From IMG/VR virus record IMGVR_UViG_3300024259_000034: a DNA stretch of 59,774 bases; one strand, 5' to 3'. Within the stretch, counting starts at the first letter, position 1. Each line of letters opens with the position of its first letter. Positions 9,542-43,293 of this stretch are shown here, piece after piece. Under the pieces are notes generated by a model. That model was not told the DNA's origin. It ran no database searches and saw only the letters and a list, made by a program, of their open reading frames with translations. Source of the stretch: a virus. Both the position numbers and the translations under genes were made by a program.

Positions 9542-9549
9542 AATCCTCC

Positions 9550-24453: not shown

Positions 24454-25833
24454 CTATGCAGAAACAACTCCGATTTTGATTGCTTGGAAATCTGTGACAT
24501 CTCCACCGACGCGCTTTCTGGTGTAATACTCAACCATCGGCTTTGCAGTGTAAGGATCACGTTGGACAGAAATGCCTTGCCGGTCGACGATTGTGTACGC
24601 TCGCTTCCAATCTGCGAGATAGATCGCCAGTGCTGATGAGGCTGTAACTGCGACAGTCGTGGACATTCTGATCGGCAGTCCCAACAGGATACTCGGTTGG
24701 TTCAGCTCGATCCCCGGTCGCCAAATATACTGGCCATCACCATCTTTCAACTTCATGATGTCCCTGACATTCAGCCGGTTTGTCAGCCATGTTCCACGGT
24801 TCAGATACTGCTCGATCATCTGGTATTTGACATTCAACAGGCCATCGGTTGTGAACAAGGATGCGTGACCCATATTCACTCTTTCAACTGCTCCGTACTG
24901 ATAAGTCCCGGCAGTGTCCCAATCGCCGTAAGTGCCAAAACCAACTGGTTTGCCAACACCGTTTCCGGTTACAAAAGCTGCTCCCTCAGTCCGGCCCATT
25001 TTCTCGGCGACTTTATTGGACAGCCAGTTTTCCAGATTGATCCCTGAGTCATCCAAAACGGTCTGGGATGCTCTCGGTCGAGCTGCCAAAACATGAACAG
25101 GAATTCTTTTCATGTCCCAGTTTGGCGTATCGGAAGGATCATTGGCCTGAGTCTCGCCTTCCCAACTCGCATCGGCTTCATCAACATCTGCCAAAAACTC
25201 GATGGCTCCGGTGGTGATACTCAGAACTGTTGCCAGTTGCCTGATGGGATCGGATTCAAACATCCTTGACAGGATCGTTGCCGACATCTGAGGAGTCACG
25301 GTATAACCGCCACTCGTATCGATGCCAACCTGCAGGGCTTTGTATGCTTCCGGTGAAAGTGCCTTTTCGTCCTGATACAGAAACTCATCAAAGGCAGTTT
25401 TGTACGCCTTCAATGCTTCAGGATCGGCTTCCAGCAATCTCCTGGCTTGCCAATTGACAGTCTTTTCCTTCGCTGCCATGCACTGAACCTGGAAAGCCAT
25501 CGCTTCTTTGATCAACTGACGATCTTCCTCGATGGATGTGCCATGAGAAGGATGGGTCCTCTTCATCGCAACTTCAACCTGATCCATGCGCTCATTGGCG
25601 ACGGCAACCTGCTTGTCAATCTCAGCCTGTCTGGTGGACACATCAGCGGTCAATTTGTCCAGATGCTCTTTCGTTACAGGATCGATATCGCCTTGCCTTT
25701 CGACAACCGATTTCAACTCCTCGTAATTCCTGGACATCGTTTCAAAATTTTCCTTTGAAGTGGCTCCAATCGCGTCCAACTTCTTTTTGATTTCTTCCAC
25801 AATCGGTTCTGTGGTGGTGATATCTTCTGGCAT
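24454..25833 (-). CDS. major capsid protein, HK97 fold
   Basis: 459 aa with an N-terminal coiled-coil delta-like region followed by an HK97-family core. It lies directly after the prohead protease. Confidence 0.85.
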   Translation of the reverse strand: MPEDITTTEPIVEEIKKKLDAIGATSKENFETMSRNYEELKSVVERQGDIDPVTKEHLDKLTADVSTRQAEIDKQVAVANERMDQVEVAMKRTHPSHGTSIEEDRQLIKEAMAFQVQCMAAKEKTVNWQARRLLEADPEALKAYKTAFDEFLYQDEKALSPEAYKALQVGIDTSGGYTVTPQMSATILSRMFESDPIRQLATVLSITTGAIEFLADVDEADASWEGETQANDPSDTPNWDMKRIPVHVLAARPRASQTVLDDSGINLENWLSNKVAEKMGRTEGAAFVTGNGVGKPVGFGTYGDWDTAGTYQYGAVERVNMGHASLFTTDGLLNVKYQMIEQYLNRGTWLTNRLNVRDIMKLKDGDGQYIWRPGIELNQPSILLGLPIRMSTTVAVTASSALAIYLADWKRAYTIVDRQGISVQRDPYTAKPMVEYYTRKRVGGDVTDFQAIKIGVVSA

Positions 25834-29010: not shown

Positions 29011-29386
29011 TATTTGCCCAGATTAAAATTCCTTCAGTGCCTTTTTCATCAATTATAAACACCCAAGCCTCCATACTATCTGCTAATCTTTTCCTGTTAA
29101 CTCTCCAATACCAGCTACCATCTGACATTAAATGATTTATGAATTTGGAATCAGTCTTATTGATACCATCACAACACCAACCATTGTGAGGCCCATAATA
29201 AAACCAACCGTACAATGCTTTTTGGAGGAGCTTGTCAGCATCAGACAGATTATCTGCTTCATCAAAATACTGCACTCTGCCATTTGCTACAGGGTGTTTG
29301 CAAGCATATCCTCCTGACTGATTTGTGTACTCTTCACCATCATCAGACAATACGATAATGCCCATTCTTCCGTTCGTATCAATCAA
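29003..29386 (-). CDS. hypothetical protein inserted between the portal and MuF genes
   Basis: 127-aa Trp/Cys-rich ORF. Confidence 0.5.
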   Translation of the reverse strand: MIDTNGRMGIIVLSDDGEEYTNQSGGYACKHPVANGRVQYFDEADNLSDADKLLQKALYGWFYYGPHNGWCCDGINKTDSKFINHLMSDGSWYWRVNRKRLADSMEAWVFIIDEKGTEGILIWANSD

Positions 29387-30693
29387 TTTTTAAGCCCCAT
29401 AAGTTCTTCTGCATCTTCAGGTTTTACTCCGGCTTTATCAAGATCCTCGAATATCTCCTCCTCCTCATCGGCTTCATCTTCTTCCAGTTCAGTTCCCAAT
29501 GGAATCATACTAGCCTGTACCAAAACAACATCACCATCATCGATGGAATCAAGACCGACCATTTCCCTTTTTTCGTTGATCGTGAGGAATTCTGACTCCT
29601 GGGCTCTCTTCCATTTTTCAGTCTGCCTTGGCTCAAGTGCCGGAACACCGTCTAACACAAAATCGAGTGATATGGCATCCTCGTTCGTGAATAGCCAGTT
29701 ATTCAATTCATCCCTCATGTAACTGAGCATATAGAATACAATCTTCTCCCAAAATGACTGCTCCGCTGTTTCATAATTGGCAAAGGTAGAATCACCGATA
29801 ATCCCAATGATCTGCGATGGAGTAAAAAAGCCTCTCGCGATTTGCCTGGACTTCTCACGACCGCCTTGAATAAAATCTAACTCCTGCATATTGTAACCGT
29901 AAGGCTTTGCTTCACCATCACCTTCAATAATCAGACTCTTGCCAGCGTTTTCTGCTCCTGATTGGTTTTCCTTCAGATCCGCCTTGAATCGTTCGTACTG
30001 TTTGTCACCCAAAGCCTGTTTGAACATGAACAGCATTCCCGGTCTGGCTTCATTCTCCAGCAGCTTTTTGTTCCATTCCGTCGCTTCGTTTGCAGTGTCG
30101 ATATTTTTAGCAGATGCCTCAACCGGAGATGCCCCCATAATATCATTCGTCGGGTGAAACATTTTCAAATGCAGCAGATCACATTGGCCAGTGACAGGAT
30201 CGATTTTCCAAACCTTTTTCGCGACTCCTTCTTCGTTCAGCTCATATCCTAAAAGTTCCCCGGTGTCGTTATGGACAATCACCTTTATTCTGTCAGGACG
30301 AATAACTCCGATCTCTTTTGGAACTCCGGCATTATCTCCAGTGGTCGGCGATATCCTTTCAGGGAAAGTGTTCCCGGCAATCATAATATAAGATACTGTC
30401 TCCAATATCAGAGCTGACCAGCCTTGCTGCGGATTCGGTCTTTTCAAAAGTTTGTTGACCGGATGTTCTGTGTTGATCTCGCGAGTGCCATCCTCCTTCT
30501 CATTGTAAACTTTCCAAGGCACAGAAGCGCAAGCCATCGCGACCTCATTAACACACCGATACATATCAACGCTTTTCAGATAACCTTCATCGGCGAAATT
30601 CTGGTAATTCCTTTCCGGCCATCTGGCGGTCCCGGTATTCGGAATATTCACCGTTGTCGATTTTTTCCTGAACCAGTTTGTCCAAAATGCCAT
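29383..30693 (-). CDS. portal protein (HK97-type)
   Basis: ~436 aa with Phage_portal-like sequence and an acidic C-terminus. The ATG at 30693 lies behind GAGAGGGAAG. Confidence 0.85.
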   Translation of the reverse strand: MAFWTNWFRKKSTTVNIPNTGTARWPERNYQNFADEGYLKSVDMYRCVNEVAMACASVPWKVYNEKEDGTREINTEHPVNKLLKRPNPQQGWSALILETVSYIMIAGNTFPERISPTTGDNAGVPKEIGVIRPDRIKVIVHNDTGELLGYELNEEGVAKKVWKIDPVTGQCDLLHLKMFHPTNDIMGASPVEASAKNIDTANEATEWNKKLLENEARPGMLFMFKQALGDKQYERFKADLKENQSGAENAGKSLIIEGDGEAKPYGYNMQELDFIQGGREKSRQIARGFFTPSQIIGIIGDSTFANYETAEQSFWEKIVFYMLSYMRDELNNWLFTNEDAISLDFVLDGVPALEPRQTEKWKRAQESEFLTINEKREMVGLDSIDDGDVVLVQASMIPLGTELEEDEADEEEEIFEDLDKAGVKPEDAEELMGLKN

Positions 30694-30790
30694 CACTTCC
30701 CTCTCTTAATTGGCTTCATCCTGACTCTTTTTTTTCTTCTCAGAGCTTGCAAGACCGCAGCTCTCGTTCTCTTTCTTCACCAACCCATTT

Positions 30791-31042
30791 TCATCCTACA
30801 ATGAAATGCTTTACAAAATACCCAACTGCTCCACCAGCCAGACCTGTGACTCCAGAAAAAATAAGATATTGCTTGTTGACTTTATCCTTCAGTTTTTCGA
30901 TCCCGACACCCAATATACGAATATCTCCAGACATCTTCGTTTGGGTTTCCTTTATGGCTGAGACAGTTCCCTCAATAGTTCCCATCGATCTCATCAATTC
31001 TGGGTGTGCCGAACAAGGACCATCATGCATCGATTCCATCAC
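30791..31042 (-). CDS. hypothetical protein with C-terminal TM helix
   Basis: 83-aa ORF with the hydrophobic segment LIFSGVTGLAGGAVGYFV. Confidence 0.5.
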   Translation of the reverse strand: MMESMHDGPCSAHPELMRSMGTIEGTVSAIKETQTKMSGDIRILGVGIEKLKDKVNKQYLIFSGVTGLAGGAVGYFVKHFIVG

Positions 31043-31233
31043 TCCTCTCCATGCTTAAAGTGCTTAACAATCGGGCTTAACTGTAAGGCATCTGCCAACT
31101 GTGTTGCCCCTGAATCCCTGATAAACTGAATCGCGACATCATCAAAGGATTTATGAATTGCTTCGGTATCGCCTTTATGTCTTATCTGGGCATCCATCAA
31201 TCTTTTAAGCCCATCTTGCTCCAACGCATCCAT
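31039..31233 (-). CDS. hypothetical protein
   Basis: 64-aa ORF in the same-strand array. Confidence 0.45.
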   Translation of the reverse strand: MDALEQDGLKRLMDAQIRHKGDTEAIHKSFDDVAIQFIRDSGATQLADALQLSPIVKHFKHGEE

Positions 31234-31242
31234 CGTTTACTC

Positions 31243-31914
31243 CTAATAGATGTATTCGTGAATCCCATGATAAAAATCAAGCCAGGATGTGTTCTGGGTA
31301 TCTGCCCAACATCTAACCCATGCTTTCGTTCCTTTGTTTGATCTCCGATCCAGGAATTCAATTGGCGCTGCAGTAGCAAGACCGCCACCAGTTAGGAATC
31401 CAAACTCAGTCATTTCTTCTGCAGCAACCTTGTCGGGAAGATCGGCATACTCACCAGTAGCAACCTGCAGGAAATGATCTTGGGCATTGTTCTCATGATC
31501 AACCACCAAAAACTTATGGAAATCAAACTTATTATTCACCGCCTCAACTGGAGTGTCAGATGATCCAAGTATCTGAAGCCAATCGCCCCATTTATCATTC
31601 CCGGCATCAACTCGAAATGGATCTGGTAACAAAGTGATTCTGTCAGCCACATGGGTTTCACCAACAGCAACAGCAGCAGCTCCAAACCATTTTTCTCTGT
31701 TGTGTAAGTGCCTCTCAATTTCATAGATCGACTTGGCGGTTTTATCTCCATAAACTTCCATGTCGTCATTGAAACCAGTATCAAAAGCAGCCAGACCAGT
31801 TTTATTCAACAGGCGTTTTATCCAACCCATTGTCGTATCGTCTGGATGCCTATCAGTCGGCCCACCAAGTACAGGCTTTGCTCCGAAGATATTGCCGTCT
31901 TTTGTGTCTATCAT
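31243..31914 (-). CDS. hypothetical protein (possible virion protein)
   Basis: 223-aa ORF. Confidence 0.55.
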   Translation of the reverse strand: MIDTKDGNIFGAKPVLGGPTDRHPDDTTMGWIKRLLNKTGLAAFDTGFNDDMEVYGDKTAKSIYEIERHLHNREKWFGAAAVAVGETHVADRITLLPDPFRVDAGNDKWGDWLQILGSSDTPVEAVNNKFDFHKFLVVDHENNAQDHFLQVATGEYADLPDKVAAEEMTEFGFLTGGGLATAAPIEFLDRRSNKGTKAWVRCWADTQNTSWLDFYHGIHEYIY

Positions 31915-31920
31915 TTTACC

Positions 31921-32103
31921 TCAGATGACAGCTCTGAAATACTGTCCTTGAATTATGAATAGAGATTTGCCAATCAGTTTGCCTCCGGACCTCATCTCTT
32001 TCGATTTCGCCAATGTCCCGAATATATTGCCATGCACCCCCGTTTTTCTTCGTTTCGCGGTAAACGCATTGCTATATCCTAAACCGTATTCTCCGACTCT
32101 CAT
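31921..32103 (-). CDS. small hypothetical protein
   Basis: Start trimmed to MRVGEYG, which forms a TAATG overlap with the upstream stop. Confidence 0.35.
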   Translation of the reverse strand: MRVGEYGLGYSNAFTAKRRKTGVHGNIFGTLAKSKEMRSGGKLIGKSLFIIQGQYFRAVI

Positions 32104-32531
32104 TAGCTGGTCCCGAGCCTGACTGTGCAGCAACCTCCACTATAATCGCCAGACTTAACTCCAAGACGATATTCGGCGGTTTCCGGATCTGCTGTTGCAG
32201 TAATACTCTCAGATCCTCCCTCATCTGCTGAAGCGGAATCGATTGTCCATTCAGCGACAGTTCGCCAATGGAAATCCGTATCCTCCTCCGGCATTCTTCT
32301 TTGTAGTGTGATTGTTCCCGAAAATACTGATCCCAACGCTGAAACTGCTCCGTAGGAATAGTAATCGGCTAGACCCGACAGGATATCGGATATAGCATCG
32401 CCGACTCTGATGCCGACGTTTAGGTGTTGATGACCTTGGACGGCTATCACCGACGTATAGCTGATATGTGCTGTAACCAGCAACTGTGCAGCTTTACTGC
32501 CGTCACCAATGACAAAAATCTCAGTTCCCAT
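32103..32531 (-). CDS. hypothetical protein (first gene after the glycosylation operon terminator)
   Basis: 142-aa ORF behind the RBS AAGAGGGAG, with a Ser/Thr/Asp-rich C-terminal half. Confidence 0.55.
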   Translation of the reverse strand: MGTEIFVIGDGSKAAQLLVTAHISYTSVIAVQGHQHLNVGIRVGDAISDILSGLADYYSYGAVSALGSVFSGTITLQRRMPEEDTDFHWRTVAEWTIDSASADEGGSESITATADPETAEYRLGVKSGDYSGGCCTVRLGTS

Positions 32532-32573
32532 AGTGACTCCCTCTTATGATTTAAACATCATAATAGACAGCCC

Positions 32574-32611
32574 AAAAAAAAAGTCAAACCCGGTTTTTCA
32601 TGGATTTGACT
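32574..32611 (-). terminator. intrinsic terminator after the Maf gene
   Basis: The minus strand reads AGTCAAA-16 nt-TTTGACT followed by T9. Confidence 0.6.
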
Positions 32612-32727
32612 CGTATTCTATGGATTTTGCTCTGTTTTTAGTAAATAGCCCAACCTTTTGCTGAAGTGCTATTTACTTTTTGATATATTTAGCTGTTTTT
32701 CCCTCCTGCAACAAAAGTTGATCCAGA

Positions 32728-35430
32728 TCAAGTTTTCTTCACTCTCATAATTGATTTCAGCCGATTCGCCTTCGATAAAGCGTCTGCGCTCTTCTCTTTC
32801 TGGCCATCTTCCTCATAATATTCGGCCAGCCTTCTCCATGCTACTTCATCGACTTTGAATTCTTCGACATAAATCTCTAACGCAGTGATCGCTTCATTCA
32901 ACAAACCAGCCTTATGATACAACCTTCCCAACGGCTTCAGGAAGAAATTGAACTCATCTGTCTTTGTCATGACCTCCTTGAAGATCACGAACGCTTTGTC
33001 GGTATCTCCAGTGCTGAGAAGGACAGTAGCATATTCCATTTTGTATTTAACCTCATCCGGAAACTGCTCAAGCAATTTGTCGTACATTTTCAGCGATTCT
33101 TTATCTCTTTTCACATGCCAGTATGCAGTCGCTAATCCCCACAGTGCCTCCGGTTTATCCGGTTTCAATTCATGGGCTTCCTCAAGCAATTTGACAGACT
33201 CCTCAAAACTCTTATCCTCTCTGCCTATTTTCTGGGACTCTTCGATTAGGTTCAGATACTTTATCATATCATCGCCTGTCTCCTTATCCCTTATTTCATA
33301 TTCTTTCTCTGCGTCGAGTATTGCCCTACCCCGCATTGCCAATGCTTCACTTTTAACCTCGATTGCACGGTCAATATCGCTGATACTAAAGTCTGTCAAT
33401 GGACGAGTATTCAAAACTTTCTTAGCATCCAGCAGCGGTCTGGCAAAATTCCCGGCATCAAAATAGGTTTGAGAATCCCGGAAGTGCAGTTCCTCAACCT
33501 CATACTGATGAGGGATTCCATTCTGCATTTTCTCCAGCGTTTTCAGCGTCTCCTCGTAAGTCTTTTTTAGGGACTTTGACACCTTTATCGCTTCCTCAAG
33601 GATCATCTTCGACCGATTCTGCCTGATCTTCAGATTCTTCTTTCCCTTTTTGGATAACAGAAATTCAGTATCTGACCTCACATTATGCGCTCTCAGTTCA
33701 ATTTCTCTGGACTTCTTGAATAGCCCCAACCTGACAAGCGGATTCTTATTCGCAGCTTTGTGTGCAGCATCAGTCAAGTCAAATGCCTCCTTCATTCTGA
33801 CAGCCAGTTCTGGCATAACAGCTTTAACCACTTCCTCTGACTTTGCTACTGCCTCTGCTGATTTCTCGATAATAAAATCCAGGTTATCAATATCTTCCTT
33901 CACCATCGGGATCGCCTGATCAACCAGATCATCTCCATCCGGTCGTTCTGTTAACAGCGGTTCAATCACAGTCTTATCAATCGGATCTCCCATATGCTCC
34001 TTTATCGCTTTTTTCAGGGACATCTGATCAATATGCTTCATCTTGGCTCCACCTTCCGTGGCATTAATCAAAGTCCTCTCATCTTTGTAACGTGCAAATA
34101 GATGCTCGAAATTCGTAATGAAGGTGAGCAGCCCAATATTGGTCATCACCAGATCACCATAATAGCCAGGAACATTTTGCATCAATCCCATGCTGTGATC
34201 CTGCGAGATCAGGCTTTTACTTCGTGGATCTTTCACGTTCCACCTGATTTCACCTTCCTTGGTTACACTAACATCTCCTCCGGAGTCAGCTTGCGCGATA
34301 TGGGACTTCTCTCCGTCGTATGCTAAATCCTGACCGATGATAATAATCGGATCGCAACCCATAGCAATCGCAGTTCCGAATATCATGTGAGAAACCGAAC
34401 CACCCTGATCGAGCGAACCTCTATCCTGCGTCAATCCGAATACCGTTCCTTCAGTGCCAGGATTCCATGAAACTGTAACAAATTTTGGTCCCTGCCATTC
34501 CTTCAAAAGCGGGGCATAAGATCGGTTCAAAGCAATCAGCGGAACGTCGCTATCCATCAGGCCCAGATAATGAGAATGATTCACTATCCCGAAATCGACT
34601 GAGCAAATGAAATCCGGACGGATATCGTAAGACAGCAAAACTCTCAGTGCCTGTCCAACCGCGATAATGACGAATCTCTTCTGAACCTCTTTGTCCATCA
34701 GCAAATGGATATTCTTAAACAGGGACGGACCAGTGCTGACCAGGATTGCCGGCTTCTTCTCAAATAGGTTTTGCAGCTCTGCAACTCCTCTGTGCTTTAT
34801 AACGTATGGCAGTGTCGCCATGTCATTATCAGCGATCTGTCCTCCAGCACTTTCGACTGTTCCGGTATTGCATTTCAACTGCGATATGGTGTCCAAAGCC
34901 ATCTTCGTGATGTCATAATAAACATCCTGCATTCTCGTGTAATCCTCACGGAAAACAAACTGCTGCTCAAGCATTTTGCTTTGCTCCATCCTCGACAGGA
35001 TATAGATCACATCCTCAATCGTTGGAGTGAAGATCAACCGATGCTCTTTGATGTGCTTATCGAATTTGCTCAGACTGAGCCCTTCTTTAATAATCCCGGC
35101 AACTGGCTCAATCACTATCACCTTATGTTGTTTGTCGCACTTCTTCAGAATCTCATAGGTCAGATACCCACAACCGAATCCAATAACAATCGAGATTGAA
35201 TTCTTGTGGAAATCCGAAATCTTCGCGATCCCTCGTGGAATCTCCTTCGGGTTGCTCATATCGTAAACAGATATCGGAGCTTGAGAAGTCTGGACAATCA
35301 TATTGCTGATCCCTTTCTCGTTCCGATGGACTTTGTACCAATCAACTGGCTCCTGCTTTTCGATCCAGGCATGTTGTTCCGGAACAGTTTCCTTAATCGC
35401 CCTCATATTGATCAACAGCTTTTTCGTCAT
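32728..35430 (-). CDS. maf: Maf-type (motility-associated factor, DUF115/MAF_flag10) nonulosonic-acid protein glycosyltransferase with C-terminal TPR repeats
   Basis: 900 aa. Core motifs: KKPAILVSTGPSLFKN...IIAVGQALRVLLSYDIRPDFICSVDFG...GGSVSHMIFGTAIAMGCDPIIIIGQDLAY...NATEGGAKM. The C-terminal ~200 aa are TPR-like. ATGA overlap with the upstream GNAT gene. Confidence 0.75.
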   Translation of the reverse strand: MTKKLLINMRAIKETVPEQHAWIEKQEPVDWYKVHRNEKGISNMIVQTSQAPISVYDMSNPKEIPRGIAKISDFHKNSISIVIGFGCGYLTYEILKKCDKQHKVIVIEPVAGIIKEGLSLSKFDKHIKEHRLIFTPTIEDVIYILSRMEQSKMLEQQFVFREDYTRMQDVYYDITKMALDTISQLKCNTGTVESAGGQIADNDMATLPYVIKHRGVAELQNLFEKKPAILVSTGPSLFKNIHLLMDKEVQKRFVIIAVGQALRVLLSYDIRPDFICSVDFGIVNHSHYLGLMDSDVPLIALNRSYAPLLKEWQGPKFVTVSWNPGTEGTVFGLTQDRGSLDQGGSVSHMIFGTAIAMGCDPIIIIGQDLAYDGEKSHIAQADSGGDVSVTKEGEIRWNVKDPRSKSLISQDHSMGLMQNVPGYYGDLVMTNIGLLTFITNFEHLFARYKDERTLINATEGGAKMKHIDQMSLKKAIKEHMGDPIDKTVIEPLLTERPDGDDLVDQAIPMVKEDIDNLDFIIEKSAEAVAKSEEVVKAVMPELAVRMKEAFDLTDAAHKAANKNPLVRLGLFKKSREIELRAHNVRSDTEFLLSKKGKKNLKIRQNRSKMILEEAIKVSKSLKKTYEETLKTLEKMQNGIPHQYEVEELHFRDSQTYFDAGNFARPLLDAKKVLNTRPLTDFSISDIDRAIEVKSEALAMRGRAILDAEKEYEIRDKETGDDMIKYLNLIEESQKIGREDKSFEESVKLLEEAHELKPDKPEALWGLATAYWHVKRDKESLKMYDKLLEQFPDEVKYKMEYATVLLSTGDTDKAFVIFKEVMTKTDEFNFFLKPLGRLYHKAGLLNEAITALEIYVEEFKVDEVAWRRLAEYYEEDGQKEKSADALSKANRLKSIMRVKKT

Positions 35431-35984
35431 AACAACTCCTCCGGTATCATTCCATGCAGTTTGTACCATCTTCTCTCAAGGATGGCGTATCGGTAAACGT
35501 CCTCAAAATGACCGTCCAAAAATACTTCCTGTTTCAGGACTCCTTCTCTCAACATTCCGACCTTCTCAGCAACTTTGGCCATACCCTTATTGCCTTTGGC
35601 AGTCCCAAGCCAGATTTTGTTCAGGCCGAGCTTATAGAATCCATGGTAAAAAAGCAGTCTAATAGCAGCAGTAGCCAGTCCTTTTGCCCAATATTGTTTA
35701 TCGAATATACAGGTAAATTCAGCACTCCGATTTAACCATGAGATGTCCTGTAACATCACTGAACCAGCTAATGATGGCCTTGCTGGAGTTATTTTCCAGA
35801 CCGACCATAGAATATTCCCTTTTGGGTCCGCTTTCTCAAACCTGATTTTCGAGAACAGTCCATGAGAATTGTACTTGCAAATCTCCTGATCGAAAAACCA
35901 AATCTCGCTCATCTCTCTGGCGATATCATCCATTGGCCGGATTTGAACATCCTCGGTTTCGTAGATTACGATTTCTTCAGCCAT
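35427..35984 (-). CDS. GNAT N-acetyltransferase (PseH/RimL-like)
   Basis: 185 aa with YWAKGLATAAIRLLFYHGF, the acetyl-CoA binding motif A. Confidence 0.7.
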   Translation of the reverse strand: MAEEIVIYETEDVQIRPMDDIAREMSEIWFFDQEICKYNSHGLFSKIRFEKADPKGNILWSVWKITPARPSLAGSVMLQDISWLNRSAEFTCIFDKQYWAKGLATAAIRLLFYHGFYKLGLNKIWLGTAKGNKGMAKVAEKVGMLREGVLKQEVFLDGHFEDVYRYAILERRWYKLHGMIPEELL

Positions 35985-36204
35985 CTATCATCTCATGAAA
36001 TTTTAACTCGAATGGAATCTTTTGCCCATGTCGCTTCCGCATTTGCTGTCCAATTAATTCTTCAGCACCTTTATCGAGAATCAAATCTCTTTCAAACATC
36101 TCTACCAAGCAGTCAACCAAGACTTCGGGAGTTATTCTCTCATCTTCATCTCCACCACAATGCTTTTCCCAAATGTACCTTATGATCGGTTCAACCTCGC
36201 TCAT
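35977..36204 (-). CDS. hypothetical protein
   Basis: 75-aa ORF within the operon. Confidence 0.45.
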   Translation of the reverse strand: MSEVEPIIRYIWEKHCGGDEDERITPEVLVDCLVEMFERDLILDKGAEELIGQQMRKRHGQKIPFELKFHEMIDG

Positions 36205-36404
36205 AATTTCTCCGGTGTTTCATCCAAACAAATAACCTTAAACAAATCACGTTCCCAATTTCTCAACTGGATAGTGACCTCTTTCAGCTTATCCTTATCA
36301 ATTACACTTGAGCTATCAGCCACTATATCACGGAGCAAATTCAAAGCTGCAGACACCTTTACCCTATCAGAGACATCGGTATATTCCTGCTCCGTCATAC
36401 TCAT
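36201..36404 (-). CDS. hypothetical protein
   Basis: 67-aa ORF within the operon. Confidence 0.45.
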   Translation of the reverse strand: MSMTEQEYTDVSDRVKVSAALNLLRDIVADSSSVIDKDKLKEVTIQLRNWERDLFKVICLDETPEKL

Positions 36405-37345
36405 AATTCCTCCAGCATTTTTCCTAATTCGTCACGAGTCAATTGCCACGGATTGTTTCCTGATCCAAAAGTCCAACGATGCTCAGTTGGAGTGCTGGCT
36501 TTCCGTATCGTAAAATGTTTCATACGTTTATCCGTATAAATACTCTCCTCCTCTGTAATTAGGAACTCGTGCAACTTCTCTTGACCACGCAGACCTATGT
36601 ATTTTATCTCCGCCTCCGGAGCAATAAATTTCGCGATGTCCATCACTGACAAAGATGGCATATTGGGAACGTAAATCTCACCGCCTTTCATGTCCTCTAT
36701 CCTGTCACAAATAAATGCAGCGACTTCCTTCACCGTTATCCAGAATCGAGTCATCTTCGGGTCAGTCACTGTCAAAATGCCGAATTGCGCTTGTCTCCTG
36801 AATAGCTCAATCACAGATCCATTTGAACCAAACACATTTCCATATCGAATGCACGAGAATCTTGGGTCCCTCCCTCCCGAATAAGTGTTGGCCGTAATCA
36901 TCAGATCCTCGGCACACTTCTTCGTCGCCCCATATAGCGTAGTTGGATAAACGGCTTTATCGGTGCTGATCTGCACGACTTTTTCAACCACATTCCGGAC
37001 AGCAGCGTACACAATATTCTCAGCTCCACCAACATTCGTTTCGATACACTCCAGAGGATTCTCTTCGGCGGTATCAATTCTCTTGATCGCCGCGCAGTGG
37101 ATAATAATATCTGTGCCGATCGATGCCATGATAACTCGCTCTCGATCTCTGACATCTCCGATCAGGTAGGCAATATTTTCCGTGTATCCTTCCTCAGTCA
37201 ATTGCGCTCTCAACTCTGCCTGTTTATGCTCAGACCGACTGAAGATCCGTATTCCTCGTGGTTTGTACTTGTGCATGATCGTTCTTACCAGCATACTCCC
37301 TAAAGTGCCGGTTCCTCCAGTAATCAGAATCTCTTTACCGTTCAT
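36401..37345 (-). CDS. UDP-GlcNAc 4,6-dehydratase, PseB/FlaA1/SpsM-like (short CapD type)
   Basis: ILITGGTGTLGS Rossmann motif, SRSEHKQ, ISTDKAVYPTTLYGATK (YxxxK). Confidence 0.75.
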   Translation of the reverse strand: MNGKEILITGGTGTLGSMLVRTIMHKYKPRGIRIFSRSEHKQAELRAQLTEEGYTENIAYLIGDVRDRERVIMASIGTDIIIHCAAIKRIDTAEENPLECIETNVGGAENIVYAAVRNVVEKVVQISTDKAVYPTTLYGATKKCAEDLMITANTYSGGRDPRFSCIRYGNVFGSNGSVIELFRRQAQFGILTVTDPKMTRFWITVKEVAAFICDRIEDMKGGEIYVPNMPSLSVMDIAKFIAPEAEIKYIGLRGQEKLHEFLITEEESIYTDKRMKHFTIRKASTPTEHRWTFGSGNNPWQLTRDELGKMLEEL

Positions 37346-37557
37346 TCAATCCTCGCTGTAATTGTCCCAAATTTTGTCTTTTTTTGATCGATGTACTTCC
37401 GATAAAACGAACACTCAAACCAATCTGTCATCTTATCTCGATAGCAATACGGACCCATTTGTTTCCAGCATTTAGTGCAAAAAACCGCAGCTCTGTATCC
37501 TTTCTTGATTTCAGAGACAGTGACCGCAGCAAACCTATGCTCACAGTCATCCTTCAT
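37342..37557 (-). CDS. small Cys-rich hypothetical protein
   Basis: 71-aa ORF within the operon. Confidence 0.45.
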   Translation of the reverse strand: MKDDCEHRFAAVTVSEIKKGYRAAVFCTKCWKQMGPYCYRDKMTDWFECSFYRKYIDQKKTKFGTITARIE

Positions 37558-38386
37558 TGATTACCTTTCTACCTCTCAATCCGGTACCGGGATCGGCTTT
37601 CAAATACCGCTCAGTTTGCTGCTTCCTGATAATATCGAAATTGGGTGTTCCCCATGCCTCTTCTTGAACCCTGATACCAGTAATCGCACTCTCTAAAAAT
37701 GAAGCAGACCAGCAATGACCATGTACCGATTCCGCTCCTTTGTTGTCATCAAGATCAAAATGCGCCTCGATATATTCTGCTCCGGCTGCGACTGCTCCAT
37801 AAATCACATTCCTGTTTTTTGTATGATCAGACCAGCCCATTTTAAAACAATCTGGATATCGTTGACAAAAATCCTCAATCACCGCCAGATTGCATTCTTT
37901 TACTGCTGCAGGATACTTGGAAACACAGTGCATAATCGTCAGATCGATCTCATCTTCCTGAATCTCAGCCAACATTTCGAACAACTCTGTTTCATCCATC
38001 AGACCGATTGAAACAAACAGTGGTTTTTTGATCACCAATGCAGTTCTGTATAACTCAACCAGACCGGCTTCATGACTGGCTATCTTCAAGAAATCTGAAT
38101 ACTGATGATACATCGACATCCACGTTGGATCAAAAAACGAATATCCAATATTGATATGCTTCGCTATGGCATATTGTTTCATCACCGGGAGCCAGTGGGG
38201 TTTCAACTGTCTCTCCTCTGCCTGTCGATAATTCGGATGTGAGTATTCATAAAGCTGGTTGGCAGTGTAAAGCTGAAACTTCACTCCCCAACATCCAATA
38301 TCTTTCGCGACACTGATCAGATTCAGCGCACGGTCTAACTCTCCGTTGTGGTTGCTTCCCACTTCGGCAATAAATCTCGTTTCCAT
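37547..38386 (-). CDS. NeuB-family nonulosonic acid synthase (PseI/LegI/SpsE-like), no SAF domain
   Basis: FIAEVGSNHNGELDRALNLISVAKDIGCWGVKFQ. At 279 aa it is a TIM barrel only. Confidence 0.75.
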   Translation of the reverse strand: METRFIAEVGSNHNGELDRALNLISVAKDIGCWGVKFQLYTANQLYEYSHPNYRQAEERQLKPHWLPVMKQYAIAKHINIGYSFFDPTWMSMYHQYSDFLKIASHEAGLVELYRTALVIKKPLFVSIGLMDETELFEMLAEIQEDEIDLTIMHCVSKYPAAVKECNLAVIEDFCQRYPDCFKMGWSDHTKNRNVIYGAVAAGAEYIEAHFDLDDNKGAESVHGHCWSASFLESAITGIRVQEEAWGTPNFDIIRKQQTERYLKADPGTGLRGRKVINEG

Positions 38387-38883
38387 TCTTTCCTCGTTAT
38401 CGACGCTACATGGCTACTGTAGAACGTCTTGTTTTTCCAGAATCGATCAGTCAAGAAACCTTCATGGCGGAAACCCTGCTTTTTCCAGAATTTCCAGTTC
38501 TGTGTGGTGGCAATGACCTCGATAAAAATACAGTTCAGATTCGCGAGATTGAATCCGACCTCAAGCAATTTCCTGACAGCCTGTGTTCCATATCCCTGCT
38601 TCTGATAATCCGGTTTTACCAATAAACCCATCTCAGCAGTTCGATTCACAGCATCAATTTTATCAAGACCGCAGTAACCGATAAAATTAAACAACTTGAA
38701 TTCATTCCCATCATAAATGAAATAATACCGCTCCCGGTCTGACATATTCTTCACCCATTGCTCCTGACCCCAACCTTTTGCAGTCAGATCATCAGCTCTC
38801 AAGGAAAGCATCGATTCATTCCGCCATTGAGCGATCAGATCCAGTTCCGGCTGTTTGACTGTCATCTTCTCCAGCTTGATCAT
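38335..38883 (-). CDS. GNAT N-acetyltransferase
   Basis: 182 aa with YQKQGYGTQAVRKLLEVGF (motif A). Confidence 0.7.
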   Translation of the reverse strand: MIKLEKMTVKQPELDLIAQWRNESMLSLRADDLTAKGWGQEQWVKNMSDRERYYFIYDGNEFKLFNFIGYCGLDKIDAVNRTAEMGLLVKPDYQKQGYGTQAVRKLLEVGFNLANLNCIFIEVIATTQNWKFWKKQGFRHEGFLTDRFWKNKTFYSSHVASITRKEWKRDLLPKWEATTTES

Positions 38884-40202
38884 CTCAACTCCTCCACGTT
38901 CTCAGTGACCTTCTCAAACGCATTGATAATATCATCCAAATCTCCTCGGTTCGTTGGTGGCGCCAGATACAAGTGCAGGAATAGATCGTCTTTCCAGAGC
39001 TTTTCGACAACTGGAAGCGGTTTAATAAATCTATCAGCACCAATCGAATGATACCGCACTTCTTTATCTGGATTCTTGAACCGATCATCAAACAAAGGCA
39101 TCCTGTAAATCGGCTTGATATATCCACCACCAATCCTGACTCCCTCACTTTCTCGACCTCTCATCGGCTGTAATTCTGCCTTAACAGCTTCCAAAAATCG
39201 ATCTCGATGTAATTCAAGATAATCTTGATCGTAAAAAAACGCCTGGACATAGAACGTATGCGTACAGGATTCACGAATCGGCGCCGGGGTAATGAAAGGT
39301 ATGTTATTCAACCGAACTGCAAGATAATCGGCATTTTCGTTCCTTTTACCGATAAAGAAATCCAACTTCTTCAACTGCTCCTGCAGGATCGCTGCTTGAA
39401 TTTCGGTCATCCTCAGGTTCATTCCCCACAATTCTTTGTGCTTTTCCAGAACTGGTCGATGCTCCAAGTTCATCTCAGCGTCATTAATTACCGCCTCCGC
39501 ATGGTTTATGATCAACCGGCATCTCTCTGCCAACTCATCATCTATTGCAGTAATCATCCCGCCTTCTCCGGCTGTCATATGCTTGCCCTGAGTAAAACTG
39601 AAGCAACCGATATCTCCCAAATCCCCGGTATACAAATTCTCTGGATTTCCCATCAACCATGCTCCCGGTGCTTGCGCTGCATCTTCGATCAGATATATGC
39701 CTTTTTCCTGTGCAAATGCGATCAGCCTTTTATCAAATGGCTGGCCAAATAAATCGACGGCAATAATCGCTTTCGTATGTTCAGTGATCTTCGATTCCAC
39801 CGATTCCACATCGAGACAGAAATAATCTCTCTCAACATCTGCAAAAACTGGGGTAGCTCCACAAAGCATTGGAGCAGTAGCACTGCAAGCCATCGAATAT
39901 GGCGTGACAATCACTTCATTTCCCGGCTTTAATCCAATTGCCAGACAAGCGACATGCAAAGCGGAAGTGCAGCTATTCACAGCAATCGCGTGTTTGTGCT
40001 GAAACCTCTCCTTCCACATTTCCTCAAACTTCTGGACTTCAGTTCCGCCTCGATACTTCTGCCAGTTTCCTCGGTATCCAGACAGCATCTGAGATTCCAT
40101 AACTCTCTGGGCTGCTGATGCTTCCTCATACCCGATACAAGCCTGATTCGGGAACAGCTCTGTTCTGATCGGCTCACCGCCGTTGATTGCTAGTTTTGCC
40201 AC
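38880..40202 (-). CDS. DegT/DnrJ/EryC1/StrS-family sugar aminotransferase (PseC/LegC-like)
   Basis: 440 aa with the PLP-lysine motif CFSFTQGKHMTAGEGG. Confidence 0.8.
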   Translation of the reverse strand: MAKLAINGGEPIRTELFPNQACIGYEEASAAQRVMESQMLSGYRGNWQKYRGGTEVQKFEEMWKERFQHKHAIAVNSCTSALHVACLAIGLKPGNEVIVTPYSMACSATAPMLCGATPVFADVERDYFCLDVESVESKITEHTKAIIAVDLFGQPFDKRLIAFAQEKGIYLIEDAAQAPGAWLMGNPENLYTGDLGDIGCFSFTQGKHMTAGEGGMITAIDDELAERCRLIINHAEAVINDAEMNLEHRPVLEKHKELWGMNLRMTEIQAAILQEQLKKLDFFIGKRNENADYLAVRLNNIPFITPAPIRESCTHTFYVQAFFYDQDYLELHRDRFLEAVKAELQPMRGRESEGVRIGGGYIKPIYRMPLFDDRFKNPDKEVRYHSIGADRFIKPLPVVEKLWKDDLFLHLYLAPPTNRGDLDDIINAFEKVTENVEELR

Positions 40203-40212
40203 GCCATTCTCC

Positions 40213-41148
40213 TTATTTATTCGATGTCAACTTCTTCTGCAGATTCACTGCTGCATCGGCTCCCAACAAAGTCAGGAAATCCACGCCGTTAGTGCTTCCG
40301 CCTTTACCGTTTCCACCAATCACAATGGAAGGGACCAGTTGTGCTTTGCCAAGACTTCCGTACAGCGTCGTCATGATCTTCACCTGAGCCTCGATCTCTT
40401 TATCAAAAACATACTTAGGATCCAGTGCATTCTTCGCTGCTTTCTTCCTGGCTGCTGCCATAACCATCAAACCTTCAGCAATCTTACGCTGTTTGGCCAG
40501 GATCTCAATCTGCTTCAATTTCGCCTGTCGCTCAAGCTCAACCTCCTGACTCGCATTAATCACAGCAACTTCTTTGCGCTGTTCGGCACTGATTCTGGCT
40601 TTCTCTTTATCCTTCAGGGATTCAGCTCTCTGATCTTCCAAAGTTTTCAGACCTAACGCTTTGGCAGTTTCGGCTTCCTGTTGGGCTTTCTTCAGGTTCT
40701 GCCGTGCAAGTGCTTCATCTGCAGCCGATTTTTTCTGGCTTTCAAGACGTTCCAAAACCTTTTCTTCATAAACCACATCGATAATGGAAGCATCAACAAC
40801 CGTGATCCCATAATCAGTCAGAGGAGATTTCGTTCGCATATCCTTGCCGTCATCAGCTTTCCGCTTTCTTATGGTCACTCTCTGGCGGTCAGACAACTCA
40901 TCTTTGGTCTTTGCTCTTGATCCGGCTTTATCAATCTGCTGGTCAACAACAAAAATACCATTAATCATCTGGTCACGGAAATCCATACTCAACTGGCCAT
41001 TTCCACCAGAATAATGCTCTTCAACCGACATCAATCTGGCTGACGCTTTGGCAGTCTCTTCGGTCGCTCTCACCATCACATTTGAAACCAGAGTATCCTG
41101 ATCTCCAAATTCCCGGTGGATCTTCAGAAGCGGTTTTCCTGCCGGCAT
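40213..41148 (-). CDS. SPFH/band-7 (flotillin-like) protein, C-terminal part
   Basis: 311 aa with a coiled-coil EA-rich region. The upstream frame stays open to within the end of 41150..41500. Confidence 0.55.
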   Translation of the reverse strand: MPAGKPLLKIHREFGDQDTLVSNVMVRATEETAKASARLMSVEEHYSGGNGQLSMDFRDQMINGIFVVDQQIDKAGSRAKTKDELSDRQRVTIRKRKADDGKDMRTKSPLTDYGITVVDASIIDVVYEEKVLERLESQKKSAADEALARQNLKKAQQEAETAKALGLKTLEDQRAESLKDKEKARISAEQRKEVAVINASQEVELERQAKLKQIEILAKQRKIAEGLMVMAAARKKAAKNALDPKYVFDKEIEAQVKIMTTLYGSLGKAQLVPSIVIGGNGKGGSTNGVDFLTLLGADAAVNLQKKLTSNK

Positions 41149-41149
41149 T

Positions 41150-41500
41150 CTAAATCTGGCAACACCCTTCGCTCCGCCTGTCGTAGTGTCCAGAAATCAA
41201 TCTGGGGTTCGGCTCCAATTTTGAGGATGCCTTCGCGCTCGGTGTCCCTGTAAAGTTAACAGCAATCACCCTTTTGTAAATCGTGGGCGTTCCAAACAGT
41301 CTCATGTACGGTCCCGGCGTATCAATTACCGACATCGTTCCACCAACACTCTGCAGCACAATCCTCTCATCGGCATCGTTGAAATCGACGGTCTTGATTC
41401 CAAGTACCAAAAGCACAATAAACAAAATTACCGCTGGCACTCCGATTTTTACCATCTTTCGGAATGGCTTAGGAATCATACCTTCAATTGTTTCAGTCAT
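41150..41500 (-). CDS. TM anchor plus start of an SPFH domain (possibly the N-terminal part of a split gene)
   Basis: N-terminal TM helix (VPAVILFIVLLVLGI) followed by DERIVLQSVGGTMSVIDTPGPYMRLFG, an SPFH-like start. Confidence 0.5.
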   Translation of the reverse strand: MTETIEGMIPKPFRKMVKIGVPAVILFIVLLVLGIKTVDFNDADERIVLQSVGGTMSVIDTPGPYMRLFGTPTIYKRVIAVNFTGTPSAKASSKLEPNPRLISGHYDRRSEGCCQI

Positions 41501-41518
41501 CTTTAAACTCCTTCAATT

Positions 41519-41902
41519 TTAATTTAACAAAATCCTCAACTTCAGTCCCTGGCAGTGAAAGAACCTTGGGAAGAAACTCCCGCTTCTATGGAGATCAATC
41601 AGCGTTCCCTCAATCTCCGAAAGGCTGGAATCCGCCCCTTTCTGGCGGTCCAGTTCAATCAAGCCATCGATTAACCGATTCACAATGCTATCCGGATCCT
41701 CGATTAGCTTCCTCTGCTGGATCTTCTTTTCTTTCTCGCTTTTTGCCAGTTCGACAATCCAAAAGAAAACGCCAGCACCCATAACAACAAATATAACATT
41801 CACCACCATCGATAGTGCAATCATCACGATTTCCAAATTGCAAGTGTAAACGAACCTGCGATTATCAAAATCCACAGGATTACATAAAGCACCTTGTGCC
41901 AT
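41519..41902 (-). CDS. small membrane protein
   Basis: One TM helix (MIALSMVVNVIFVVMGAGVFFWIV). The start is ambiguous (41902 or 41824). Confidence 0.45.
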   Translation of the reverse strand: MAQGALCNPVDFDNRRFVYTCNLEIVMIALSMVVNVIFVVMGAGVFFWIVELAKSEKEKKIQQRKLIEDPDSIVNRLIDGLIELDRQKGADSSLSEIEGTLIDLHRSGSFFPRFFHCQGLKLRILLN

Positions 41903-41936
41903 CTTTTCGTCAAGACTCCTTCAACTACTTTCATCA

Positions 41937-42884
41937 TCATCCCTCCAAAACTTTATGGACAGCAATCGCATCTTCCGCATCACATTTCAGATCCTCTGAG
42001 CCGTCCAGGTATTTGACTGCGTTTTCCAACATAAAATGCAGATTCCATCCCATGTTCGTTGCCTGAGTTTTCGGCATTCCCAATTGCGGATAGCTGCCGT
42101 AAATACTTTCGTTCTCTATCGGATAAGTCGCCAATCTAGTTCCGTACTGGTAAAACTGGAACCTTCCGACTGAGCTGATTACATCTATCTCGAACGTGTA
42201 GGCTTTCCGGCCATCGACTCCGGTGAAAACCACATAAGGGCATCTCCCATACACAAAATCAGTTGTCAGGGTCGGGTCATCGCCATCTCTATCATAAATC
42301 GGCGTATGTTTTGGCGCTGCTCCCTCCAATGCACCAAACCACCAATTGCAGAGATCAATAGCGTGAGATCCATCATGCTTCAATCCTCGACCGTAAATCA
42401 CTCTCGCGTTGTAAATCTCAACTCCAGGCTTACTCAGTTTCTCATAAACTCCCTGATGGAATGCTTCAAATCTTCTGGAGTAATCGACCATTAGCGGGAC
42501 TCCAGCAGCCTCACAATAACCGTGCATCCACATCGCTTCATTAAGATCCATGCCAAACGGCTTCTCACAGATAATCAACTTCGGTTTCATATCAGCACAA
42601 TGCTTCACAACCTCCAGATGGAATTTCGTCGGCACTGCCACGATCATAATATCTGCCTCTGAAGTCACAATTGACGACCAGCCACAATCCCATTTCTCTC
42701 CGGCTTCCTTTGCTTTCCTATGATCCTCATCAAAAATGCTCACCAGATCGATTCTCTTGTGCGCCCAACATGCGTGTCCGTGGGTTAGAGGGACAGTCCG
42801 TTTATCCTTTTTGTCCTTTGACTCTGGCTTCAACGCTCCAATGGAACCGGCTCCGATAATCGTTGCTGTGTAATTTTTCATCAT
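41937..42884 (-). CDS. Gfo/Idh/MocA-family NAD(P) oxidoreductase
   Basis: TIIGAGSIGA Rossmann motif plus the ICEKPF motif. Confidence 0.75.
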   Translation of the reverse strand: MMKNYTATIIGAGSIGALKPESKDKKDKRTVPLTHGHACWAHKRIDLVSIFDEDHRKAKEAGEKWDCGWSSIVTSEADIMIVAVPTKFHLEVVKHCADMKPKLIICEKPFGMDLNEAMWMHGYCEAAGVPLMVDYSRRFEAFHQGVYEKLSKPGVEIYNARVIYGRGLKHDGSHAIDLCNWWFGALEGAAPKHTPIYDRDGDDPTLTTDFVYGRCPYVVFTGVDGRKAYTFEIDVISSVGRFQFYQYGTRLATYPIENESIYGSYPQLGMPKTQATNMGWNLHFMLENAVKYLDGSEDLKCDAEDAIAVHKVLEG

Positions 42885-43132
42885 CCTCTCTTTTTTTCAT
42901 TGGAAGTCAAACGCCGATCAAATAGTCCCACCTTCTTCTGGTAATACGCCTCGATCTTTTTCAATGCAGGGACTTCCTGATTCAACAGATTCGCATAATC
43001 GACACATGCCTGAACCATTGCATCCTGGGCTTCATAGGCATAAACAATAAACTCCTGATCATCAATAAACGTGACTCTGTATGGTCTGGCTGCAGTGTTG
43101 TTCACATCTTCTCCCAAAGATAATGAGCGCAA
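42881..43132 (-). CDS. hypothetical protein
   Basis: 83-aa ORF. Confidence 0.45.
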   Translation of the reverse strand: MRSLSLGEDVNNTAARPYRVTFIDDQEFIVYAYEAQDAMVQACVDYANLLNQEVPALKKIEAYYQKKVGLFDRRLTSNEKKRG

Positions 43133-43293
43133 TGCCTCGGGTAATCCTTACCTTGCCAAACATCGATTATCGTTTTGGCATCCGTCGCAATTCCAGCAGT
43201 ATCTCTTTGCCATAGCTCAAAAACTTCAACCAGCCTTTCAAGTGTCACTGTTTTAGTCGGCTGTGGTGGAGCTGTCGGTGATTCTTGTGTCAT
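43102..43293 (-). CDS. hypothetical protein
   Basis: 63-aa ORF with an ATGA overlap to the cytidylyltransferase gene. Confidence 0.4.
   Translation of the reverse strand: MTQESPTAPPQPTKTVTLERLVEVFELWQRDTAGIATDAKTIIDVWQGKDYPRHCAHYLWEKM

Follow-up and report, generated by a model that had tools for sequence, protein, structure and literature searches.

A gene for a TPR-bearing Maf protein

The viral DNA described here is IMG/VR record IMGVR_UViG_3300024259_000034. This whole stretch, 59,774 nt long, is called the window hereafter and all coordinates refer to it. Identical contigs measure 59,977-59,989 bp, so that the window is essentially the whole genome of a phage. On its minus strand, at 32728..35430 (stop codon included), we find a gene for a 900-residue protein that combines a Maf glycosyltransferase with a C-terminal array of tetratricopeptide repeats (TPR). 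The protein is named Maf-TPR below. A first-pass annotation had already placed a gene at these positions, and the minus-strand open reading frame (ORF) is present there. Read from the first ATG, this ORF extends to 32728..35469. We prefer the start at 35430, because its ATG overlaps the TGA of the upstream GNAT gene by the four bases ATGA (TTATGACG; junction sequence …GGAGGAGTTGTTATGACG…), because a GGAGG motif is located 9 nt upstream, and because the public gene call P0001, found on 12 contigs, is the identical 900-residue protein. The coupled gene (35427..35984, minus strand) encodes a GNAT of 185 residues (Acetyltransf_3, E 5e-15; weak match to PseH, E 8e-5). The overlap agrees with the translational coupling of the two genes that had been proposed.

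Maf-TPR is the last gene before a terminator, as the first-pass annotation had claimed. A hairpin with an 11-bp stem and a 10-nt loop, followed by U9, is located at 32612..32574 (minus strand; RNA folding energy -16.2 kcal/mol, z -3.4 against shuffled sequences). A simple terminator scan missed it because of its AT-rich stem. The next unit is headed by a sequence (TTGACT-16-TATTAT; 32560..32587, same strand) that overlaps the terminator and resembles a sigma-70 promoter; the resemblance is to the consensus alone, and the count of such matches in the region does not exceed that in shuffled sequence. The gap downstream of Maf-TPR is 196 nt. The structural unit that follows starts, as had been described, with two unassigned proteins of 142 and 223 residues, then two small ORFs (64 and 83 residues) and the portal gene (unit start, 29383..32531; portal, 30696..29383, phrog_12, E 2e-62; all minus strand). 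The 142- and 223-residue proteins have no match in Pfam or PHROG, and none by tblastn in 116 related loci.

Domain architecture and fold

PF01973 (MptE-like, formerly DUF115/MAF_flag10) matches residues 204-372 of Maf-TPR with E 5.5e-42 and 143.9 bits, against a cut-off of 34.6. This establishes the DUF115 core that had been read from the sequence. TPR_19, TPR_16 and TPR_14 cover residues 738-852 above their gathering scores, with E values from 1e-12 (TPR_19) to 5e-9, and consensus TPR proteins match the C-terminal repeats with E 5.8e-10. An AlphaFold2 model was built with an alignment of 120 full-length homologues (mean predicted local distance difference test score 94.8, predicted template modelling score 0.91). 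Using Foldseek, the top solved structure for the whole chain is 5mu5, the Maf protein of Magnetospirillum magneticum (E 1.9e-15 over 727 columns, template modelling (TM) score 0.56 normalised on the target). The last 170 residues superpose on the five-TPR protein MamA with a TM score of 0.85 and a root mean square deviation of 2.3 Å.

The model shows four parts, all encoded on the minus strand. The N-terminal domain (residues 1-205; 34816..35430) has a Rossmann-like alpha/beta fold. The catalytic MAF_flag10/DUF115 core (residues 206-485; 33976..34815) carries the motifs STGPSL, PDFICSVDFG, GGSV, IGQDLAY and TEGGA. It is followed by the canonical helical C-terminal domain of Maf proteins (residues 486-717; 33280..33975), with long helices at 499-536, 541-561, 594-636 and 683-717. 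Five TPR repeats made of ten helices (residues 720-890; 32761..33273) complete the chain and form the presumed acceptor-docking module. The C-terminal TPR region of the first-pass annotation is thus confirmed by the Pfam families, by the ten helices of the model and by the superposition on MamA. The same annotation had also described an extended N-terminus and a helical linker of about 200 residues. Both have to be renamed: because 5mu5 aligns over 727 columns, they are the canonical N- and C-terminal domains of a Maf. The supposed linker lies within this alignment. As to the N-terminus, a model of the flagellin modification protein PseD aligns from residue 83, and the core begins at residue 226, earlier than in 5mu5 (residue 273). 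The TPR array is the sole addition relative to 5mu5.

Across the 120 homologues, residues T233-G234-P235, P272-D273, D279, G344-S345-V346, G366 and G460-G461 are invariant, and Q367-D368 and E459 are conserved in at least 90%. The GPS, PDF and GxDL core motifs align with those of 5mu5. A conserved aspartate of the core is essential in the Maf proteins of Shewanella oneidensis (D247 in Maf-1, D261 in Maf-2; bioRxiv 10.1101/2023.12.03.569772). Here, the candidate counterparts are D273 and D279 of the PDFICSVDFG motif; both are invariant, and the PDF motif aligns with 5mu5. The PseD model itself (NCBIfam NF050051) aligns with residues 83-486 at E 2.4e-29 and 102.5 bits, below its 670-bit cut-off, from which we regard the protein as a relative of PseD and not as its orthologue. 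Altogether, sequence, fold and pathway neighbours identify the protein as a true member of the Maf family, with the architecture of the Maf-1 class. The flagellar locus usual for the family is lacking, as there is no flagellin gene in the window.

One feature of the N-terminal domain deserves mention. Residues 84-109 (35104-35181, minus strand) contain an invariant G84xG86xG88 and a near-invariant E108-P109, a pattern of Rossmann or methyltransferase-type nucleotide pockets. The top structural match in BFVD is annotated as a phage protein with a methyltransferase domain. The N-terminal domain may bind a cofactor.

A nonulosonic-acid cassette upstream of Maf-TPR

Genes resembling those for the synthesis of pseudaminic acid (Pse) are located directly upstream of Maf-TPR. 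With the coupled GNAT they form a cassette, the rest of which spans 35977..44024 on the minus strand. Assignments are from best Pfam and NCBIfam matches, with CTP_transf_3 found on an identical contig. In the direction of transcription, the cassette begins with a PseF-like cytidylyltransferase (44024..43290; CTP_transf_3) and a GFO/IDH/MocA oxidoreductase (42884..41937; Pfam). Three unassigned proteins of 127, 116 and 311 residues follow (41902..41519, 41500..41150 and 41148..40213). Next are a PseC-like DegT aminotransferase (40202..38880; 204 bits against a PseC cut-off of 423.5), a GNAT whose best NCBIfam match is PseH (38883..38335) and a PseI/NeuB synthase (37547..38386 on the minus strand; 123 bits for PseI against a cut-off of 340, with NeuB scoring about equally). 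After a 71-residue ORF comes a PseB-like 4,6-dehydratase (37345..36401; 340 bits against a PseB cut-off of 407.75, 56 bits for LegB), and ORFs of 67 and 75 residues follow it.

The best NCBIfam matches are of Pse type, and all pathway enzymes score below the equivalog cut-offs. With the NCBIfam profiles we could not find a PseG-like hydrolase. For these two reasons the sugar is called Pse-like. Because no PseG-like UDP-sugar hydrolase was detected anywhere, one of the three unassigned proteins may fill the PseG step. The 311-residue protein has a weak SPFH/Band 7 match and matches phrog_11908.

In 51 of 53 related loci, a counterpart of the Maf-coupled GNAT adjoins Maf on its upstream side and in the same orientation; several of these loci have no other GNAT. 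Its constant position and its occurrence as sole GNAT indicate that it is probably the N-acetyltransferase of the pathway. The window has two GNATs; relatives such as L007 and L013 have only a homologue of the Maf-coupled one. The additional, PseH-like enzyme of the window may serve to attach another kind of N-acyl group to the sugar.

Distribution among phages

A word-indexed search returned 1,598 relatives of Maf-TPR, of which the best 120 were used for alignment and conservation. With lengths of 843-970 residues, these 120 align to 89-99% of the query (35-43% identity), and Maf and TPR parts are both present in nearly all; many are encoded on contigs of 48-65 kb. An exhaustive HMMER pass over 1.84 billion cluster representatives retained 395 clusters at E<=1e-30, among them over 100 full-length types with 850-960 residues (clusters at 50% identity).

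Scanning of IMG/VR gave 115 stretches encoding a relative. We kept 76 loci, 52 of them with a full-length Maf-TPR, and scanned them with peptide patterns over 10 kb on either side of Maf. At least two cassette genes are present in 49 of the 52 full-length loci. Structural phage genes, searched by tblastn with all window proteins, are found within 10 kb in 40. No flagellin was found in this range, either in the 52 full-length loci or in the 76 phage loci as a whole. Clustering of ORFs reveals a fixed gene order: PseF, GFO, PseC, PseI, PseB, GNAT, an optional helical protein of about 66 residues, and Maf-TPR.

In 28 of 53 related phage loci (for instance L007 9814-10008, L043 9799-9990 and L041 9523-9726) the helical protein (60-90 residues) is encoded directly upstream of Maf-TPR, and the two genes often overlap. 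It carries the motif I.EI..IR..NN.WM.LLR.A....PEE.K.I...I...D..I..L.KEL, has no Pfam match and has no copy in the window. A role as adaptor or chaperone of Maf-TPR is conceivable. In S. oneidensis, the TPR-less Maf-2 depends on the adaptor GlfM (bioRxiv 10.1101/2023.12.03.569772). We considered a GlfM-like adaptor for the window Maf and rejected it, as the small helical protein is not encoded in the window and matches no Pfam family. Eight relatives carry within the cassette a 366-residue BNR_2 protein, a sialidase-like beta-propeller with Asp-box repeats (e.g. L041 6256-7356), which has no counterpart in the window.

More distant, TPR-less Maf proteins, mostly of 590-650 residues, were found in 24 further IMG/VR loci (L093-L116). 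They are accompanied by PseB-, PseC-, PseF- and GNAT-like genes and not by flagellin. In six of these loci (L103, L106, L108, L110, L113 and L115) the cassette is located a few kb upstream of the portal and MuF genes. Phage-borne Maf systems therefore reach beyond the TPR clade. With 107-123 kb, the Maf-bearing viral contigs of L008, L062, L081 and L089 are about double the usual length of 50-65 kb, perhaps because they are larger relatives or assembled concatemers.

Isolated phages give a different picture. Among the 50,697 records of INPHARED, tblastn with the full-length protein or with residues 1-500 found no Maf at E<=1, megablast with 13 kb of the window gave no match, and a NeuB-like gene was seen weakly in three records only. 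In BFVD, the relatives are uncharacterised MptE-like proteins from uncultured phages, none of which matches the whole architecture. In GTDB species representatives, full-length matches are on short or phage-sized contigs of metagenome-assembled genomes in scattered phyla (Alphaproteobacteria, Melioribacteraceae, WWE3, Woesearchaeota and Desulforudis). One of them, the Desulforudis contig, has baseplate genes and is also recorded in IMG/VR as a virus. We read these scattered matches as binned phage DNA.

Cellular relatives

A second group of relatives is encoded in cellular genomes. Of 26 cellular loci, 16 have a flagellin gene at a distance of up to 10 kb from Maf, and none has phage structural genes. 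On the closed 2.6 Mb chromosome of a Desulfarculia bacterium (L016; OY759352.1), a 556-residue Maf gene diverges from a row of genes for flagellin, a GT2 enzyme, PseB and a Maf-TPR of 1009 residues. Another locus (L017) shows the order flagellin, FliS, Maf-TPR (984 residues), GFO/IDH/MocA among the genes for PanC, HrcA and transketolase. Besides the second, TPR-less Maf (556 residues), positions 1-9800 of L016, the locus of the closest chromosomal Maf-TPR, encode enzymes of types GT9 and GT2 and a GT1-like one that bears a TPR of its own, all grouped around a single flagellin gene. This is a multi-enzyme flagellin-glycosylation island.

A neighbour-joining tree was calculated from the first 520 residues. 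It is based on distances only, and gene contexts were checked for part of the 120 homologues. The best 120 homologues are monophyletic in it, and the Desulfobacterota proteins of L014 and L016 are the closest outside them. Domains differ in how they change across the split between cells and phages. Identity of the core falls from 0.56 between phages to 0.42-0.47 with L016 and L014, and that of the helical domain from 0.35 to 0.25-0.29. In contrast, the TPR array shows 0.35 and 0.33 with L016 and L014, respectively, against 0.37 between phages. By these values the TPR array is the domain that changes least, with no extra divergence between cells and phages, which we take as weak evidence on the acceptor.

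The phage genome

All genes of the window, including Maf-TPR, are on the minus strand. The small and large terminase subunits are encoded at 6498..4410. Head genes comprise the portal, a MuF-like head protein, a protease and the major capsid protein (25833..24454); tail genes comprise the sheath (phrog_165, E 1e-145), the tape measure, a Mu-like baseplate and a short tail fibre. An ERF recombinase, a PDDEXK nuclease, a replication protein and HNH endonucleases occupy the early region. From this gene content we classify the phage as a myovirus. No integrase, transposase or repressor was found among the window ORFs scanned. The endolysin and accessory genes were uninformative as to the host.

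The tail fibre is short (219 residues) and is encoded at 9200-10209 (minus strand) together with an adjacent XkdW-like protein (PF09636, E 4e-9), of a family named after the Bacillus PBSX prophage. In L007, L008 and L013, the three phage loci that we inspected, about 65 residues at the N-terminus of the fibre show 52-68% identity; 35 of the 76 IMG/VR loci contain the fibre by tblastn. A 452-residue protein encoded at 7196-8554 (minus strand), between the genes for the terminase and the tail fibre, fuses PF22555 (phage DAM-like domain 1) with PF22559 (phage GNAT-like domain) and is a candidate DNA-modification enzyme.

Proposed function

S. oneidensis Maf-1 (822 residues, TPR at 550-820) suffices for Pse-dependent glycosylation of flagellin. 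Its C-terminal TPR binds flagellin in two-hybrid assays, and truncation of the TPR abolishes the modification (bioRxiv 10.1101/2023.12.03.569772). TPR repeats have been taken as a hallmark of flagellin glycosyltransferases (PMC13317340). We consider it very probable that the window protein is a protein O-glycosyltransferase of this TPR-bearing, "bipartite" Maf-1 class. The upstream PseB-, PseC-, PseH-, PseI- and PseF-like enzymes, with the GFO/IDH/MocA oxidoreductase, would make a CMP-activated Pse-type nonulosonic acid, the phage thus supplying its own donor. The MAF_flag10 core would transfer this sugar to Ser/Thr hydroxyls of a protein, which the five TPR repeats, probably with the helical C-terminal domain, would hold at the active site. 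Family, fold, domain order, core motifs, the cassette and its recurrence in many phages are results of the computation; the nature of the donor and the transfer activity are inferred from the family, and the docking role of the TPR from the Maf-1 experiments.

An MptE-like pterin diphosphokinase or an enzyme acting on a non-protein acceptor (phage DNA, polysaccharide) is very improbable: the Pfam family name "MptE-like" and the DAM-like/GNAT-like fusion at 8554..7196 point that way, and Pyle et al. are said to have described in 2024 the hypermodification of phage DNA with glycans, but the MptE-type kinase 8sd5 is matched only with E 0.24 over 62 residues, against 9e-4 by sequence and 1.9e-15 by fold for Maf 5mu5, the protein has the three domains of a Maf plus a protein-binding TPR, and its neighbours are nonulosonic-acid genes and not folate or pterin genes. 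The window protein is not an MptE kinase.

The first-pass annotation had seen in the TPR a device that probably selects a specific folded protein. Recognition of the acceptor by the TPR is in line with the Maf-1 experiments. That the acceptor be folded is not required, since flagellin is modified in the cytoplasm before export.

The acceptor

By homology with the published architecture, the default acceptor is flagellin. To our knowledge, every characterised Maf acts on flagellin; a protein of the same architecture binds it, and the nearest cellular relatives are encoded beside it. The comparison of TPR identities between cells and phages adds weakly to this. For these reasons we favour host flagellin, tentatively, as the acceptor in the infected cell. 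The phage would have captured a cellular flagellin-glycosylation island minus the flagellin and FliS genes. The flagellar filaments of infected cells would then receive, or retain, a glycan dictated by the phage, in a flagellar counterpart of the O-antigen conversion known from phages. A possible gain is altered recognition of the filaments by other phages, or that infected cells are kept motile.

Several observations weigh against host flagellin. We found neither flagellin nor FliS nor any other flagellar gene, whether in the window, itself almost a complete genome, or in the 10 kb on either side of Maf in the 76 phage loci. A search for a flagellin-like gene in the window by tblastn and phmmer with the flagellins of Escherichia coli, Campylobacter jejuni and L017 gave nothing below E 0.5. 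Flagellin as acceptor would hence have to be supplied by the host, which would need to be flagellated. Flagellar filaments grow only at the tip, and the benefit of modifying them is not obvious for an apparently lytic phage, without lysogeny genes. The cassette takes up about 15% of the genome, has long been inherited within a monophyletic phage clade and, in 34 of 52 loci, converges on the tail-fibre and baseplate genes next to it. Moreover, the exact sugar is uncertain, given the scores of the pathway enzymes below equivalog cut-offs and the missing PseG-like hydrolase. Lastly, TPR identity resides mostly in scaffold residues, so that the cell/phage comparison of this domain is weak.

Alternatively, the captured enzyme may have been retargeted to a conserved structural protein of the phage itself, such as the capsid, the sheath or the tail fibre. 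Glycosylation of the virion is possible, though on the doubtful side. The cassette is a long-conserved part of the phage clade and not a sporadic add-on, and by carrying the whole donor pathway the phage is independent of sugar synthesis by its host. In the window Maf-TPR is the last gene before the structural operon. The absence of lysogeny genes agrees with such a use, as does the position of Maf beside tail-fibre and baseplate genes in the 34 loci, or beside portal and MuF in several TPR-less Maf phages; the tail-fibre junction is a common site of accessory genes, however, so that this adjacency is weak evidence. Freeman et al. are said to have described in 2023 that mycobacteriophages encode glycosylation of capsid and tail-tube proteins, which would be a precedent. 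In C. jejuni, Pse has been found on proteins other than flagellin (bioRxiv 10.1101/2025.07.13.664564). Should this reading hold, the particles might be coated with an acidic sialic-acid-like sugar for stability, for less non-specific adsorption or for masking. Against a virion acceptor stand the flagellin substrates of all characterised Maf proteins, the binding of flagellin by a TPR of the same architecture, and the TPR array itself, which is no more diverged than the other domains from its flagellar-locus relatives. In addition, no outstanding candidate acceptor is found among the phage proteins. The downstream proteins of 142 and 223 residues were rejected because they are not conserved with the enzyme in the 116 related loci. 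A serine/threonine-rich patch of the sheath (residues 141-170) was uninformative, being an ordinary segment of variable serine/threonine content in an alignment with nine related sheaths.

We consider it unlikely that other host proteins (pilins, S-layer or cytoplasmic proteins) are the acceptors, by loose specificity of the TPR and with remodelling of the infected cell's surface. The conserved TPR residues are mostly at scaffold positions, as might be expected from loose specificity. Maf-1 has been described as more promiscuous in its acceptor residue in a heterologous host (bioRxiv 10.1101/2023.12.03.569772), and Pse sites were reported on FliH, Maf3, Hup and FtsA in C. jejuni (bioRxiv 10.1101/2025.07.13.664564). 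The genomic context, however, contains no pointers to pilin or S-layer genes. We also know of no Maf with a demonstrated physiological target other than flagellin.

Implications

Maf proteins and nonulosonic-acid glycosylation have so far been studied as motility and virulence traits of bacteria. Here a near-complete donor pathway and the transferase form a long-conserved phage module, in a phage group that is widespread (more than 100 full-length clusters, 115 IMG/VR stretches) and has no counterpart among isolated phage genomes. Either outcome for the acceptor would be new. If it is host flagellin, phages would drive a conversion of host flagellar glycans, analogous at the level of proteins to O-antigen conversion; flagellotropic phages and immune recognition would both be affected. 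If it is a virion protein, virions would be decorated with O-linked, pseudaminic-acid-like (sialic-acid-like) sugars. Such a phage would be the first with nonulosonic-acid glycosylation, and its TPR, reading a virion protein, would define the first physiological class of Maf substrates other than flagellin. As a compact, self-contained module with a confident enzyme model, the cassette makes the clade a practical source of portable systems for protein pseudaminylation. The clade also offers a clean system for studying how TPR arrays choose their acceptors.

Comparison with known systems

The closest described system is Maf-1 of S. oneidensis MR-1 (Unay, Kint & Viollier). Both proteins show the order N-terminal domain, MAF_flag10 core, C-terminal TPR, and both are encoded next to Pse genes. 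In Maf-1, the TPR is the determinant of acceptor binding. The window protein is likened to it by architecture; it differs in being phage-encoded, in having no flagellar genes nearby and in its length (900 against 822 residues). The Maf of M. magneticum AMB-1 (5mu5) shares the N-terminal domain, the core, the helical C-terminal domain and the GPS, PDF and GxDL motifs. It has no TPR array, is only 13% identical to the window Maf and is the product of a cellular flagellar gene. The Maf-TPR proteins of Desulfobacterota islands (L016, L014, L017/L018) align over the full length, TPR included, at 32-36% identity and have PseB and GFO/IDH/MocA neighbours in common with the window. They are longer (984-1070 residues), are encoded beside flagellin and FliS and fall outside the clade of 120 homologues.

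Caulobacter crescentus FlmG works alike: it is reported (PMC7591256, as summarised in bioRxiv 10.1101/2023.12.03.569772) that a TPR domain binds flagellin and a glycosyltransferase domain transfers Pse. Its TPR is N-terminal and its glycosyltransferase domain has a GT-B fold, which is not homologous to the MAF_flag10 core. The domain order in the window is thus reversed, and the window protein is not FlmG-like in fold.

Among phage systems, the glycosylation of mycobacteriophage virions attributed to Freeman et al. (2023) is reported to involve phage-encoded glycosyltransferases near structural genes or serving their products, and it provides the precedent for a virion acceptor. It is said to differ in using unrelated glycosyltransferase families and hexose-type glycans, with neither a nonulosonic-acid pathway nor a Maf. 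EpaA and EpaB of an Acinetobacter baumannii prophage are phage-borne, act on pseudaminic acid and alter a surface glycan of the host, as reported in PMC12053666. They modify a sugar of the capsular polysaccharide and are neither a full pathway nor a protein glycosyltransferase.

A Maf with a C-terminal TPR is therefore a published design and not new, the Maf-1 architecture having been described. We found no paper on a phage-encoded Maf, or on a phage-borne Pse pathway coupled to a protein glycosyltransferase; our coverage of the literature is incomplete, and this absence is not proof. As far as we can see, the conserved presence of Maf-TPR in over 100 phage lineages has not been described. What looks new in comparison with the systems above is the setting: a self-contained phage-borne cassette, conserved in a phage-specific clade and absent from isolated phage genomes.

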